Source: a virus
Taxonomy: Duplodnaviria > Heunggongvirae > Uroviricota > Caudoviricetes
Strand: one strand, 5' to 3'
Length of the DNA stretch: 5,071 bases
Virus record (IMG/VR): IMGVR_UViG_2663762849_000018
The notes beneath the pieces are model-generated. The model was not told the DNA's origin and searched no databases. It saw only the letters and a list, made by a program, of their open reading frames with translations. This document shows, in pieces, positions 1 through 5,071 of this stretch (position 1 is the stretch's first letter; each line of letters opens with the position of its first letter). The position numbers and the translations under genes are program-made.

Positions 1-1
1 G

Positions 2-112
2 GATGCAATTGTGCGGGAGGCTCTTCTTCGTGATTTTAATACTCCACCCTTTAAAAAAGTGCCGGCTTACTGGCTTCATCCGGGGCTGACTTATCTTAAA
101 GTGCGTATTTAG
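2..112 (+). CDS. 3' end of an unidentified upstream ORF (36 codons open from the window edge, stop TAG 110-112)
   Basis: Frame 2 is open from nt 2 to TAG at 110-112 (…DAIVREALLRDFNTPPFKKVPAYWLHPGLTYLKVRI*). It ends 36 nt before the lysozyme start. It does not resemble the C-terminus of lambda gpM or of S/S21-type holins as I remember them. It may correspond to the small unknown ORF found between holin and endolysin in some lambdoid lysis cassettes; that is unverified. Confidence 0.25.
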   Translation, partial: DAIVREALLRDFNTPPFKKVPAYWLHPGLTYLKVRI

Positions 113-148
113 TGGGCCAGGGACAGCGGCTGAATATTTAATATATCC

Positions 149-1186
149 ATGAACACCAAAATCAAATACGGCCTGTCGGCTGCCGTTCTGGCGCTGATTT
201 CCGCTGGTGCGCCTGCGCCTGACATTCTCGACCAGTTTCTGGATGAAAAGGAAGGCAACCACACCACGGCATACCGTGATGGTGCAGGTATCTGGACCAT
301 CTGCCGTGGTGCCATCATGGTGGATGGCAAACCTGTCGTTCCGGGCATGAAGTTGTCGAAGGAAAAATGCGACCAGGTTAACGCCATTGAGCGTGATAAA
401 GCGCTGGCGTGGGTGGAGAAAAACATCAGAGTGCCGCTGACCGAACCCCAGAAAGCGGGGATCGCGTCATTCTGTCCGTACAACATTGGTCCCGGTAAGT
501 GTTTCCCGTCGACGTTTTACAGACGAATTAATGCTGGTGATCGCAGGGGAGCATGCGAGGCGATTCGCTGGTGGATTAAGGACGGTGAGCGGTATTTTTT
601 CTGTAATGAGCTGAATGAAAAAGGGGAGCCGGTCACCTGGCAGGGGCGGCAATATCAGGCGTACCCGATTGAGGGGAGTGGCTTTGAGATGAACGGAAAG
701 GGCAGCAGTGCCCGCCCGTCGCTGACGGTGTCCAATCTTTTCGGCCTTGTCACCGGAATGGCGGAGGATTTGCAGAGCCTGGTGGGGGCCACGGTGGTCC
801 GCCGCCGGGTGTATGCCCGTTTTCTGGATGCGGTGAATTTCGTTGCGGGCAATCCGGAGGCGGACCCGGAGCAGGAGCTGAGTGACCGCTGGGTGGTGGA
901 GCAGATGTCGCAGCTGACAGCCATGACGGCCTCGTTTGTGCTGGCCACACCGACCGAGACGGACGGGGCGCTGTTTCCCGGTCGTATCATGCTGGCGAAC
1001 ACCTGTATGTGGACCTACCGCTCTGATGAGTGTGGTTACACGGGCGGGGCTGTGGCGGATGAGTTCGATAAACCCACCACGGATATCCGTAAGGACAGAT
1101 GCAGCAAGTGCATGCGCGGGTGTGAACTGCGCAGGAATGTCGGCAATTTTGGCGGTTTCCTTTCCATTAATAAACTTTCGCAGTAA
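149..1186 (+). CDS. Chimeric ORF: N-terminal SAR-type phage lysozyme (GH24, P21 R / RrrQ-like, residues ~1-146) fused in frame to lambda-like tail-tip protein L (residues ~147-345, equivalent to lambda gpL ~34-232)
   Basis: 345-aa ORF from the six-frame track. Residues 1-146 match P21 R / E. coli RrrQ-type lysozymes: Gly/Ala-rich weakly hydrophobic N-terminal segment YGLSAAVLALISAGAPAP (SAR-like), catalytic E35-x8-D44-x5-T50 (EGNHTTAYRDGAGIWT), and FYRRINAGDRRGACEAIRWW. From ERYFFCNELNEKGEPVTWQGRQYQ onward the sequence is nearly collinear with lambda gpL through the C-terminal GNFGGFLSINKLSQ, including the Cys cluster (C286, C295, C318, C321). Junction is at about nt 584-589 (…WWIKDG|ERYFF…). 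Confidence 0.85.
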   Translation: MNTKIKYGLSAAVLALISAGAPAPDILDQFLDEKEGNHTTAYRDGAGIWTICRGAIMVDGKPVVPGMKLSKEKCDQVNAIERDKALAWVEKNIRVPLTEPQKAGIASFCPYNIGPGKCFPSTFYRRINAGDRRGACEAIRWWIKDGERYFFCNELNEKGEPVTWQGRQYQAYPIEGSGFEMNGKGSSARPSLTVSNLFGLVTGMAEDLQSLVGATVVRRRVYARFLDAVNFVAGNPEADPEQELSDRWVVEQMSQLTAMTASFVLATPTETDGALFPGRIMLANTCMWTYRSDECGYTGGAVADEFDKPTTDIRKDRCSKCMRGCELRRNVGNFGGFLSINKLSQ

Positions 1187-1191
1187 ATCCC

Positions 1192-1935
1192 ATGACAGAG
1201 ACAGAATCAGCGATTCTGGCGCATGCCCGGCGGTGTGCGCCTGCGGAGTCGTGCGGCTTCGTGATAAGCACGCCGGAGGGGGAGCGGTATATCCCTTGTG
1301 TGAATATTTCCGCAGAGCCGGAGGCGTATTTTCGTATCGCACCGGAAGACTGGCTGCGGGCAGAGATGCAGGGGGAGATTGTGGCACTGGTCCACAGTCA
1401 TCCCGGTGGACTGCCCTGGCTGAGCGAGGCCGACCGGCGGCTGCAGATAAAAAGCGCACTGCCCTGGTGGCTGGTCAGCCGGGGTGACATTCACAAATTC
1501 CGCTGCGTTCCGCAACTGACGGGACGGCGCTTTGCGCACGGGGTGACGGACTGTTACACGCTGTTCCGGGATGCATACCATCTGGCAGGCATTGATATGC
1601 CGGATTTTCATCGCGGGGATGACTGGTGGTGCAACGGTCAGAACCTTTACCTGGACAATATGGAGGCAACGGGCTTTTACCGGGTGCCCCTGTCCTCTGC
1701 ACTGCCGGGCGATATCCTGCTGTGCTGCTTCGGCGCATCGGTGGCTAATCATGCCGCCATTTACTGCGGCAACGGTGAGCTGCTTCACCATCTGCCTGAA
1801 CAGCTGAGTAAACGGGAGAGGTATTCCGAAAAATGGCAACGACGAACGCATTCTGTCTGGCGTCACCGCCACTGGCACGCATCTGCCTTCACGGGGATTT
1901 ACAACGATTTGGCCGCCGCCTCAGCCTGTATGTGA
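1192..1935 (+). CDS. K: Tail-tip assembly protein K (JAMM/MPN metalloprotease-like N-terminal domain plus NlpC/P60 C-terminal domain)
   Basis: 247-aa ORF starting 5 nt after the L stop. Strong similarity to lambda gpK as I remember it (MTETESAILAHARRCAPAESCGF…). JAMM motif HSHPGGLPWLSEAD (H68, H70, S78, D81) and NlpC/P60-type Cys/His (C121 in TDCYTLF, H187, H199/H200). 103-nt out-of-frame overlap with the next gene, as I recall for lambda K/I. Confidence 0.9.
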   Translation: MTETESAILAHARRCAPAESCGFVISTPEGERYIPCVNISAEPEAYFRIAPEDWLRAEMQGEIVALVHSHPGGLPWLSEADRRLQIKSALPWWLVSRGDIHKFRCVPQLTGRRFAHGVTDCYTLFRDAYHLAGIDMPDFHRGDDWWCNGQNLYLDNMEATGFYRVPLSSALPGDILLCCFGASVANHAAIYCGNGELLHHLPEQLSKRERYSEKWQRRTHSVWRHRHWHASAFTGIYNDLAAASACM

Positions 1936-2513
1936 ACACGGCAGCGGAAGCCATCCGCGCACTGTCGATGCAGGTGCCGGGCTTTCGCCGTCAGATGAAC
2001 GAAGGCTGGTACCAGATACGCATTGCCGGTGAGGATACGGCACCGGAGGCGGTGTATGCCCGCCTTCACGAACCACTGGGTGAGGGAACGGTTATCCATA
2101 TTGTGCCGCGACTGGCCGGAGCCGGAAAGGGCGGACTACAGATTGTGCTGGGGGCAGCTGCCATTGTGGGGTCTTTCTTCACGGCCGGAGCATCAATGGC
2201 GTTATGGGGTTCAGCCCTGGCAGCCGGTGGTTTTTCTGCCACCACGATGCTGTTTTCACTGGGTGCCAGCATGATACTGGGCGGTGTGGCCCAGATGCTG
2301 GCCCCGAAGGCAAAAACACCGGATTACCGCGCAACGGATAACGGCAGACAGAACACGTATTTTTCCTCACTGGACAACATGATTGCCCAGGGCAACCCGA
2401 TGCCGGTGCCCTACGGTGAAATGCTGGTTGGTTCACGACGTATCTCTCAGGACATCAGCACCCGTGATGAAGGCGGAGACGGAAAGGTGGTGGTTATTGG
2501 TCGACAGGGATAA
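1833..2513 (+). CDS. I: Tail-tip assembly protein I (ubiquitin-like N-terminal domain with Gly/Ala-rich hydrophobic C-terminal region)
   Basis: 226-aa ORF, about the length I recall for lambda gpI and resembling it by memory. GGGAGAGG Shine-Dalgarno-like sequence at 1814-1821. Overlaps the K 3' end by 103 nt in a different frame. Hydrophobic Gly/Ala-rich stretch GLQIVLGAAAIVGSFFTAGASMALWGSALAAGGFSATTMLFSLGASMILGG. Confidence 0.9.
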   Translation: MATTNAFCLASPPLARICLHGDLQRFGRRLSLYVNTAAEAIRALSMQVPGFRRQMNEGWYQIRIAGEDTAPEAVYARLHEPLGEGTVIHIVPRLAGAGKGGLQIVLGAAAIVGSFFTAGASMALWGSALAAGGFSATTMLFSLGASMILGGVAQMLAPKAKTPDYRATDNGRQNTYFSSLDNMIAQGNPMPVPYGEMLVGSRRISQDISTRDEGGDGKVVVIGRQG

Positions 2514-2552
2514 AACATAAAAAAATCCCGCAGTGATCGCGGAGCTGCGGGG
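2514..2552 (-). terminator. Rho-independent terminator oriented for minus-strand transcription, immediately 3' of gene I
   Basis: 7-bp GC-rich stem CCCGCAG (2527-2533) / CTGCGGG (2545-2551) with an 11-nt loop. On the minus strand the stem is followed by AUUUUUUUAUGUUUU (plus-strand A-run 2514-2526). On the plus strand no U-tract follows the stem, so the element is directional. Confidence 0.6.
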
Positions 2553-2622: not shown

Positions 2623-2652
2623 ATTATAAGCGCCACAGTCAGTGTGTGAAAA
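2623..2652 (-). promoter_or_regulatory. Candidate sigma70-type promoter on the minus strand (perfect -10 TATAAT, weak -35 TTTTCA, 18-nt spacer)
   Basis: Minus-strand TATAAT corresponds to plus 2623-2628. A 4/6 match to TTGACA (TTTTCA, plus 2647-2652) lies 18 nt upstream. A transcript from here would run about 95 nt to the terminator at 2514-2552. Sequence inspection only. Confidence 0.25.
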
Positions 2653-2720: not shown

Positions 2721-2760
2721 GAAAACCCCGGTATCTGCTGATACCGGGGTTTCTGTTTAG
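2721..2760. terminator. Perfect palindromic hairpin, possible bidirectional intrinsic terminator
   Basis: AAACCCCGGTAT (2723-2734) / ATACCGGGGTTT (2741-2752) is a perfect 12-bp inverted repeat around the 6-nt loop CTGCTG. Plus strand continues TTTCTGTTT; minus strand continues TTTTCTTTC after the stem. Confidence 0.45.
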
Positions 2761-2855: not shown

Positions 2856-5071
2856 ATGGGAAAAGGTGGCGGTAAGGCACACACGCCTCGTGAGGCGAAG
2901 GATAATCTCAAATCCACGCAGATGATGAGCGTGATTGATGCGATTGGTGAGGGACCCATTGAAGGTCCGGTGAAAGGCCTGCAGAGTATTCTGGTGAACA
3001 AAACCCCGCTGACGGACACGGACGGTAATCCCGTGATACACGGTGTGACCGCGGTCTGGCGCGCCGGGGAGCAGGAGCAGACACCACCGGAAGGCTTTGA
3101 GTCCTCCGGAGCTGAAACTGTACTGGGTGTGGAAGTGACGAAGGCAAAACCGGTGACACGCACCATTACGTCAGCGAACATTGACCGCCTGCGGGTGACC
3201 TTCGGGGTGCAGTCACTGGTGGAGACCACCTCAAAGGGTGACCGTAACCCGACGTCTGTCCGCCTGCTGATTCAGCTTGAGCGTGGTGGTAAATGGATGA
3301 CGGAAAAGGATGTCACCATTAACGGCAAGACCACCTCGCAGTTCCTGGCGTCGGTGATTCTGGATAATCTGCCGCCCCGGCCCTTTAACATCCGGATGGT
3401 CAGGGAGACGGCGGACAGCACCACGGACCAGCTGCAGAATAAGACGCTCTGGTCGTCATACACCGAAATCATCGATGTGAAACAGTGCTACCCGAACACG
3501 GCCATTGTGGGGCTGCAGGTGGATGCGGAGCAGTTCGGCGGCCAGCAGATGACGGTGAACTACCATATCCGCGGTCGCATCATCCAGGTGCCGTCAAACT
3601 ATGACCCGGAAAAACGCACGTACAGTGGTATCTGGGACGGCAGTCTGAAACCGGCATACAGCAACAACCCGGCCTGGTGTCTGTGGGACATGCTGACTCA
3701 CCCGCGCTACGGGATGGGAAAACGTCTGGGGGCGGCGGATGTGGACAAGTGGGCGCTGTATGCCATCGGGCAGTACTGCGACCAGACGGTCCCGGATGGT
3801 TTCGGGGGCACAGAGCCGCGGATGACCTTTAATGCGTACCTGGCACAACAGCGTAAGGCGTGGGACGTTCTCAGTGATTTCTGCTCGGCGATGCGCTGTA
3901 TGCCGGTATGGAACGGCCAGACGCTGACGTTCGTTCAGGACCGCCCGTCGGATGTGGTGTGGCCGTACACCAACAGCGATGTGGTGGTGGATGATAACGG
4001 CGTGGGGTTCCGCTACAGCTTCAGTGCCCTGAAGGACCGGCACACGGCGGTGGAGGTGAATTACACCGACCCGCAGAACGGCTGGCAGACCTCCACGGAA
4101 CTGGTGGAAGACCCGGAAGCCATACTGCGCTACGGACGCAATCTGCTGAAGATGGATGCGTTTGGCTGTACCAGCCGCGGTCAGGCTCACCGTGCAGGTC
4201 TGTGGGTGATAAAGACCGAACTGCTGGAAACGCAGACGGTGGACTTCACGCTCGGGTCACAGGGGCTGCGTCACACACCGGGTGACATTATTGAAATCTG
4301 TGATAACGACTATGCCGGGACTATGACCGGCGGACGTATCCTGTCCATTGATGCTGCCACCCGCACCCTGACGCTGGACCGTGAGGTTACCCTGCCGGAG
4401 ACAGGTACATCGGCGGTGAACCTGATTAACGGCAGCGGTAAGCCGGTGAGTGTGGACATCACCGCACACCCCGCGCCGGACCGGATACAGGTCAGTACCC
4501 TGCCTGATGGTGTGGAGACATACGGTGTGTGGGGACTCTCCCTGCCGTCACTGCGCCGTCGCCTGTTCCGCTGTGTCTCCATCCGGGAAAACACGGACGG
4601 CACCTTTGCCATCACGGCGGTGCAGCACGTACCGGAAAAAGAAGCCATTGTGGATAACGGAGCCCGCTTTGAGCCGCAGTCAGGCACCCTGAACAGCGTT
4701 ATCCCACCGGCAGTACAGCACCTCACGGTGGAGGTGAGCGCAGCTGACAGCCAGTATCTGGCGCTGGCGAAATGGGACACGCCGAGGGTGGTGAAGGGCG
4801 TGCGCTTCAGTCTGCGCCTGACCAGTGGAAGCGATGAGAACAGCCGCCTGCTGACCACCGCCATCACTGCCGATACGGAGCACCGTTTCAGTGGCCTGCC
4901 TCTCGGGGAATACACCCTGACGGTCAGGGCGATAAACAGCTACGGCCAGCAGGGCGAACCGGCCACCACCACGTTCCGGATTAATGCGCCTGCAGCACCG
5001 GCCACCATTGAGCTGACGCCGGGGTATTTTCAGATAACGGCGGTACCGCGTCTTGCGGTGTATGACCCGAC
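2856..5071 (+). CDS. J: Host specificity protein J (tail-tip / central tail fibre), N-terminal 738 codons; 3' end beyond window
   Basis: ATG at 2856-2858 preceded by a purine-rich SD-like GGGGAAGG. Frame 3 is open to the window end. Translation MGKGGGKAHTPREAKDNLKSTQMMSVIDAIGEGPIEGP…TEIIDVKQCYPNTAIVG…AWCLWDMLTHPRYGMGKRLGAADVDKWALY…LFRCVSIREN…ITAVQHVPEKEAIVDNGA… is collinear with the N-terminal region of lambda gpJ as I remember it. Not listed in the ORF track because it has no stop inside the window. Confidence 0.92.
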   Translation, partial: MGKGGGKAHTPREAKDNLKSTQMMSVIDAIGEGPIEGPVKGLQSILVNKTPLTDTDGNPVIHGVTAVWRAGEQEQTPPEGFESSGAETVLGVEVTKAKPVTRTITSANIDRLRVTFGVQSLVETTSKGDRNPTSVRLLIQLERGGKWMTEKDVTINGKTTSQFLASVILDNLPPRPFNIRMVRETADSTTDQLQNKTLWSSYTEIIDVKQCYPNTAIVGLQVDAEQFGGQQMTVNYHIRGRIIQVPSNYDPEKRTYSGIWDGSLKPAYSNNPAWCLWDMLTHPRYGMGKRLGAADVDKWALYAIGQYCDQTVPDGFGGTEPRMTFNAYLAQQRKAWDVLSDFCSAMRCMPVWNGQTLTFVQDRPSDVVWPYTNSDVVVDDNGVGFRYSFSALKDRHTAVEVNYTDPQNGWQTSTELVEDPEAILRYGRNLLKMDAFGCTSRGQAHRAGLWVIKTELLETQTVDFTLGSQGLRHTPGDIIEICDNDYAGTMTGGRILSIDAATRTLTLDREVTLPETGTSAVNLINGSGKPVSVDITAHPAPDRIQVSTLPDGVETYGVWGLSLPSLRRRLFRCVSIRENTDGTFAITAVQHVPEKEAIVDNGARFEPQSGTLNSVIPPAVQHLTVEVSAADSQYLALAKWDTPRVVKGVRFSLRLTSGSDENSRLLTTAITADTEHRFSGLPLGEYTLTVRAINSYGQQGEPATTTFRINAPAAPATIELTPGYFQITAVPRLAVYDP

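Follow-up and report, generated by a model that had tools for sequence, protein, structure and literature searches.

Is an open reading frame that joins a phage lysozyme to a tail tip protein a new muralytic component of a virion, or is it only what remained when a prophage lost the genes between the two? This question is raised by an ORF in the window, i.e. the whole stretch of 5,071 bp that was analysed, which is in itself a complete draft contig (CCBY01000508.1, assembly GCA_000936105.1). An earlier reading of the letters alone (the sequence-only reading) had left both answers standing. Our analyses point clearly to the second one: the fusion is very probably a scar left when a single illegitimate, microhomology-mediated event deleted about 16.1 kb from a lambdoid prophage. 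The nearest matches and the names of the cluster members suggest E. coli/Shigella as the host. The features of the window are collected in Table 1.

Table 1. Features of the window and of two related contigs (coordinates refer to the window unless another contig is named)
Feature	Position	Strand	Basis
Normal upstream flank of an rrrQ-type lysozyme gene, end of the lysis-cassette spacer	1..148	+	complete-genome matches
Chimeric ORF, 345 aa, ATG start	149..1186	+	lysozyme residues 1-146 and L residues 34-232, in frame
Lysozyme-derived part, GH24, RrrQ/P21 R type, without the last 31 codons	149..586	+	PF00959
SAR-like, weakly hydrophobic N-terminal segment, aa 8-24 GLSAAVLALISAGAPAP	170..220	+	composition, P21 R homology
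Deletion junction, retained single copy of CGGTG	583..587	+	three-way alignment with intact C7 rrrQ and L
L-derived part, gpL residues 34-232, normal L stop codon	587..1186	+	PF05100
gpK-like tail tip assembly protein, JAB/MPN and NlpC/P60, intact	1192..1935	+	PF14464 and PF00877
gpI-like tail assembly protein	1932..2513 (ORF open from 1833)	+	PF06805
gpJ 5' part (2.2 kb), tip attachment protein, running off the contig end	2856..5071	+	FNIII-A_GpJ, Phage-tail_3, Ig_J
Long antisense ORFs, up to 330 aa, opposite L, K and J	467..1459, 1207..1878, 3594..4190, 4310..4915	-	
Moron cassettes at L boundaries	L005 1159-1298; L007 8361-11128		

Each half of the chimeric protein was assigned to its own family. 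PF00959 (Phage_lysozyme) matched residues 33-147 with an E value of 2e-21 (77 bits against a cut-off of 22.3; profile positions 2-112 of 125), and PF05100 (Phage_tail_L) matched residues 146-343 with an E value of 1e-91 (306 bits; profile positions 5-206 of 206), both above the gathering scores. The PHROGs gave the same split, with endolysin phrog_7 on residues 13-153 (E 3e-51) and minor tail protein phrog_18 on residues 146-344. The ORF is thus an in-frame chimera of a lysozyme and tail tip protein L as had been proposed, and in all details that we examined the sequence-only reading had described it accurately.

The first 146 residues, which had been read as an RrrQ/P21 R-like GH24 lysozyme, have their structural relatives in PDB entries 7m5i, 3hde (P21 R) and 4zpu (RrrD). 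The catalytic triad claimed for them is intact: E35, D44 and T50 are all present and align to the residues of the same number in P21 R (3hde). The Gly/Ala-rich character of the N-terminus was also borne out by composition, with 59% Gly/Ala/Ser in residues 8-24, and homology to the N-terminus of P21 R suggests a SAR role for this segment in membrane tethering or export. The GH24 domain is incomplete, as the last 13 positions of the PF00959 profile are absent. Compared with the intact homologue, rrrQ of E. coli C7 (177 aa), the fusion lacks 31 C-terminal residues, close to the 30 or so estimated before. The absent segment aligns to residues ~143-163 of P21 R, which we take to lie within the C-terminal lobe of the T4-lysozyme-type fold.

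The second half begins at L codon 34 by alignment with the intact C7 gene and ends at the normal L stop, just where the earlier reading had placed its limits. Intact C7 L matched the lambda gpL chains of 8iyk, 8iyl, 8k35, 8xcg and 9e7m (E 7e-125; 8iyk chain L over 232 of 232 residues). In gpL the HDI beta-sandwich comprises residues 1-166, and C173, C182, C205 and C212 coordinate a [4Fe-4S] cluster (PMC10721106). The fusion contains the HDI beta-sandwich without its first 33 residues, followed by a complete Fe-S domain in which all four cysteines have their counterparts (C286, C295, C318 and C325). The truncated beta-sandwich is the part of L that builds the final ring of the tail together with gpJ and lies stacked on gpM. 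Genes K, I and J follow the fusion in the operon, the lysis cassette lies upstream of it, and neither M nor H is found upstream.

We infer that the chimera serves neither parental role, since the lysozyme lacks the last 31 residues of its C-terminal lobe, L lacks the first 33 residues of its HDI beta-sandwich, and the SAR leader would route the chimera via Sec and place the L moiety in the periplasm. This leader would probably carry the L moiety unfolded across the membrane, away from the cytoplasmic Fe-S machinery and from tail assembly, and a periplasmic position would be unsuitable for a domain whose [4Fe-4S] cluster is assembled in the cytoplasm. Some residual activity is conceivable, as the catalytic residues and the four Fe-S cysteines are intact. 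Most likely the product is inert or unstable, in a prophage that neither lyses efficiently nor builds particles, and a function of the chimera is unlikely.

How the two genes came together can be seen from E. coli C7, which has rrrQ and L in one intact prophage, 16 kb apart, in the order and orientation that such a deletion requires. The interval contains Rz, a TonB-like gene, the two subunits of terminase, the head-tail joining protein, portal, S49 protease, decoration and major capsid proteins, FI, FII, Z, U, V, G, T, H and M, so that the earlier statement that Rz, terminase, head and tail-shaft genes and M normally separate the two genes holds for this prophage. In C7 coordinates, 16,126 bp are missing in the window. 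At the breakpoint the lysozyme parent reads ...AAGGACGGTG followed by GCAGAGA and the L parent ...CAGGGCGGTG followed by AGCGGTA; the window and its parents are identical at eight of nine positions over 579-587, and the exact 5-nt CGGTG at 583-587 is common to both parents. Lysozyme codon 147 and L codon 34 both begin at position 587, so that the join is in frame. In megablast against 5,426 complete E. coli genomes, the lysozyme-side matches end at 587 and the L-side matches start at 579/584. The glycine that had been noticed before the junction in both parents (..KDG/G.. and ..QGG/E.., the slash marking the junction) follows from the shared CGGTG at the DNA level. When all possible lysozyme x L joins were simulated, microhomology of at least 5 nt appeared in 0.15-0.7% of them (P 0.0015-0.0068); therefore CGGTG is regarded as the signature of an illegitimate, microhomology-mediated deletion. 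The two parents, the breakpoint, the shared pentanucleotide, the missing ~16 kb and the rarity of the join described below all agree with the large in-frame deletion scar that had been put forward as one alternative.

In the course of events that we propose, a deletion would have run from codon 147 of an rrrQ-type SAR-endolysin gene to codon 34 of the tail tip gene L. It would have taken away Rz/Rz1, cos, terminase, portal, protease, the decoration and capsid genes and the head-tail connectors, and further the tail tube, the chaperones G/T, the tape measure H, M and the 5' end of L. The breakpoints would have paired at CGGTG, of which one copy was kept. The reading frames would then have matched by a chance of about one third, and as deletions between co-oriented genes are in frame about one time in three, this outcome is unremarkable; it is also the reason why gene callers report one ORF of 345 aa. 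The contigs, which are 5-8 kb in size, suggest a defective prophage unable to make virions, and in a host the loss of lysis and virion genes is expected to be tolerated or even favoured.

The same contigs point to an origin of the deletion within one prophage. The same microhomology could also have been used in illegitimate recombination between two lambdoid prophages at separate chromosomal sites. Matching E. coli genomes do hold a median of 3 and a maximum of 26 matching places, and the best match of each side comes from a different strain (Z1323HEC0108 with 99.1% for the lysozyme, G1/2 with 97.2% for the tail). However, such an event would delete or invert the chromosome between the prophages and is less parsimonious, the intact C7 prophage has both parents in the right order and orientation, and lambdoid mosaicism alone accounts for the differing best matches. 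We therefore consider a two-prophage origin to be unlikely.

The deletion within one prophage was followed by a history of its own, which can be read from the other copies of the fusion. The exact 345-aa protein occurs on three NCBI draft contigs with differing ends, namely that of the window and those in GCA_000936775.1 (one synonymous SNP) and GCA_000941435.1. The junction sequence, taken as the 25-mer GATTAAGGACGGTGAGCGGTATTTT, is also present on the IMG/VR contig L006, a fourth genome, in different flanking sequence, and L006 together with three further NCBI contigs encodes a variant fusion (P0136) with four substitutions. In all copies seen, the ORF is intact. On its left, positions 1-587 of the window form one block in about 700 complete E. 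coli genomes (98.8-99.1% identity; annotated 'lysozyme' or 'rrrQ'), and on its right, 579/584-5071 correspond to ordinary L-K-I-J blocks of E. coli with identity up to 97.2%; separate intact lysozyme or tail genes that match the window are found in thousands of E. coli genomes. In L006 another sequence precedes the fusion: YdfR/DUF1327 is its immediate upstream neighbour, preceded in turn by a P21-type holin. The window and L006 are completely different upstream of the ATG, differ at 11 positions in 200-328 and at only 3 in 329-2119, and differ densely from 2120 through I and J. The near-identical core of about 1.8 kb, the nucleotide-identical junction and the mosaic flanks indicate a single deletion and then homologous exchange. 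The allele would have persisted while homologous recombination with other lambdoid prophages replaced both flanks in one lineage.

A third contig, L005 (1.3 kb, containing Ns), follows the common sequence as far as the L stop and then continues into a ClpP-like moron. We considered this right flank as a sign of a mobile fusion cassette and rejected it: the same L 3' end with the ClpP-like moron occurs in intact prophages, and the path seen in L005 may have been induced by a repeat during assembly. Some intact E. coli prophages carry a ClpP-like protease, an Arc-family regulator, YnfO and the antirepressor Ant between L and K, and strain SCU-106 has an ompC porin moron between M and L. With cassettes both between L and K and between M and L, the boundaries of L are moron insertion points.

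An ORF that stays intact while its flanks are replaced is, taken alone, compatible with retention by selection. The scar could have been exapted, if host selection kept either an attenuated, membrane-tethered muramidase, with an effect for example on envelope turnover or vesiculation, or a dominant-negative L that acts against the tail tips of related lambdoid phages. That recombination exchanged both flanks around an unbroken ORF speaks for this, and the lysis module of a defective prophage can affect its host, as reported for DLP12 and outer-membrane vesicles (PMC7918800). Against it, the distribution is very narrow, similar fusions of L to other genes are sporadic singletons, and both domains are truncated. 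The shared core has almost no divergence (3 SNPs in 1.8 kb), so that it holds no purifying-selection signal and no power to test for it. We hold exaptation to be very unlikely; if true, a deletion scar would have given rise to a function in defence or in the envelope.

Misassembly had been a concern of the sequence-only reading, and the junction itself could in principle be an assembly or library chimera, with two regions of an intact prophage brought together in one contig by error. The drafts from which the sequences come are highly fragmented (contig numbers >500 and >1,500), the window equals one short contig from end to end, and L005 has Ns and switches to the other flank directly after the L stop. 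Nevertheless, an identical junction came from three separately assembled genomes whose contig ends are unlike, it recurs within different flanks in IMG/VR, and the variant protein was found on three more contigs. The 5 nt common at the junction are far below what a mis-join in a k-mer graph needs. We regard the junction, present in several independent assemblies, as genuine, and an artefact as highly improbable.

Although probably genuine, the fusion is rare. The junction was spanned in one piece in none of the 5,426 complete E. coli genomes, and no spanning DNA match was found in 50,697 phage records or 72,556 plasmids. Exact and codon-degenerate junction patterns gave no hit in GTDB species representatives (one genome per species) or in JGI metagenomes, and in IMG/VR they found L006 alone; a single nucleotide-identical junction is known. 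At the protein level, phmmer against 1.84 billion representatives returned no protein matching both halves, the matches covering either residues 1-150 or 141-345. The junction peptide was absent from 5.8 billion proteins, a weak result, as the fusion lies hidden in a 90% cluster under a lysozyme-fragment representative. This cluster, built at 90% identity, has 747 members, both fusion variants among them, and is represented by a 120-aa 'lysozyme, partial'; representative-only searches are thus blind to the fusion, which is a general blind spot for chimeric ORFs. With tblastn, eight phage records had at least 80% peptide coverage; among the matches listed with >60% coverage all were lysozyme only and in a single piece, and the eight are treated as putative over-extended lysozyme matches. 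P0115 (75% coverage), a candidate for a natural lysozyme-L protein, turned out to be a frameshifted lysozyme. The lysozyme-L fusion is not a conserved architecture, and the possibility that L natively carries a lysozyme domain in intact phages found no example in phages, plasmids or complete genomes.

These searches also bear on the other alternative of the sequence-only reading, a tail tip protein with muralytic activity, whose architecture occurred in no phage, plasmid or complete genome and which would have to do without M upstream. A genuine tail-tip protein with an acquired lysozyme domain that, by analogy with T4 gp5, would help the tail to cross peptidoglycan is in accordance with the intact triad and Fe-S cysteines, the normal order of K, I and J after the fusion and an ORF unbroken in every copy, but is almost certainly not the explanation here, given a lysis cassette upstream instead of H-M, both domains truncated inside their folds, a membrane-targeting SAR leader unsuited to a virion part assembled in the cytoplasm, 0 of 50,697 phage records with the junction and 0 of 1.84 billion protein representatives matching both halves, 97-99% DNA identity of each half to ordinary separate genes, and a deletion signature at the junction.

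Scars of the same kind were found elsewhere. In the phmmer search, L occurred in frame with fragments of gpA terminase, gpB portal, gpE capsid, gpG chaperone, gpH tape measure and gpC protease. These proteins are singletons or form small clusters limited to a lineage, and they come from E. coli, Shigella boydii and run-level assemblies. In E. coli JNEC-KY204 (L001, 6010-9889), an intact lysozyme and Rz are followed by a TonB-like fragment, IS1, a porin fragment and full-length L; here the block from terminase to M was lost independently by an IS1-associated route. The fusion of L to many late-gene fragments, together with the loss in JNEC-KY204, means that scars ending in L recur in prophage decay.

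Three of the fusions, P0137, P0138 and P0140, have fragments of gpA, gpE and gpB as their different left partners, all joined to a lambda-type L at ...(D)IR/QETLNE at L codons 3-5, and come from Logan or NCBI run-level assemblies. This shared join could be a deletion hotspot at the L 5' end, a shared artefact or engineered lambda. Some distant L-domain proteins with about 40% identity (P0223, 685 aa; P0240, 1170 aa; P0264, 2258 aa) have very long N-terminal regions in which no Pfam match was found, and they may be natural hub-protein fusions of other phage groups.

Downstream of the fusion the window carries K, I and the 5' part of J. Counterparts of the gpK-like gene in homologous prophages are annotated 'C40 family peptidase'. 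Genes I and J, nearly adjacent in lambda, are separated in the window by 342 non-coding nt (2514-2855) whose GC content (43%) is below that of the flanking genes (about 59%), and homologous prophages (C7, JNEC-KY204) have conserved this gap. It contains a near-consensus promoter-like site on the minus strand (2650..2623, 11/12), a terminator-like hairpin (2543..2527, minus) and a strong hairpin at ~2725-2760 (plus). No Rfam, Pfam or PHROG match was obtained for the gap, which could be a small moron or an antisense RNA, and no Rfam family was detected in the window as a whole. The long antisense ORFs, like the gap ORFs, had no Pfam or PHROG match, and both were treated as spurious; the antisense ORFs probably arise from the high GC content of the coding strand.

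In our reading the fusion is an ordinary relic of a decaying prophage, and no new tail enzyme. It is a base-resolved example, one more instance of a well-known process, in which one deletion took all the genes for building virions, together with most of the lysis capacity, and left a chimeric ORF behind. Alone it has little significance, and its value is mainly a caution for annotation: scar ORFs can pass the Pfam thresholds for two unrelated functions and be mistaken for new multidomain enzymes, and they can hide in clusters named for one half, as here under 'lysozyme, partial'. The recurrent L fusions suggest that a systematic catalogue of scars would be useful for the mechanisms and rates of prophage decay.

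Among known systems, the closest to the first half is the GH24 SAR endolysin of the RrrQ (Qin prophage)/P21 R type (PDB 3hde/3hdf; RrrD 4zpu). DNA identity to annotated rrrQ or lysozyme genes is 98.8-99.1% for residues 1-146, the SAR-like N-terminus and E35/D44/T50 are common to both, and in L006 even the P21-type holin is upstream. Unlike these endolysins, the fusion has 199 foreign residues in place of the last 31 of 177, and the partner genes Rz/Rz1 are deleted beside it. Residues 147-345 are in turn the colinear orthologue of residues 34-232 of the lambda tail tip hub protein gpL, with the same four cluster-binding cysteines, the normal stop and K-I-J following as in lambda, whereas gpL residues 1-33 are replaced by a membrane-targeted lysozyme fragment and M, H, V and other tail genes are not upstream.

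Tail-associated lysins are found in hub complexes, such as the lysozyme domain (GH24) of T4 gp5 and the NlpC/P60 domain of lambda gpK. In these proteins, too, a muralytic domain is linked to the tail tip or hub, and that of T4 gp5 belongs to the same GH24 family. However, they have complete domains in conserved virion proteins of functional phages, while the fusion is truncated, has a secretion leader and a deletion junction, and is known from few isolates. Further parallels are the gpA'-L, gpB'-L, gpE'-L, gpG'-L, gpH'-L and gpC'-L fusions of E. coli/Shigella prophages, which share the same plan, an N-terminal fragment of an upstream late gene followed by the C-terminal bulk of L. Their junctions lie at L codons 3-5, ~25 and ~72-80, compared with codon 34 in the lysozyme-L fusion. 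The left partner of the latter is a lysis gene, and it therefore represents the largest deletion of the set, in which the whole morphogenetic block was removed.
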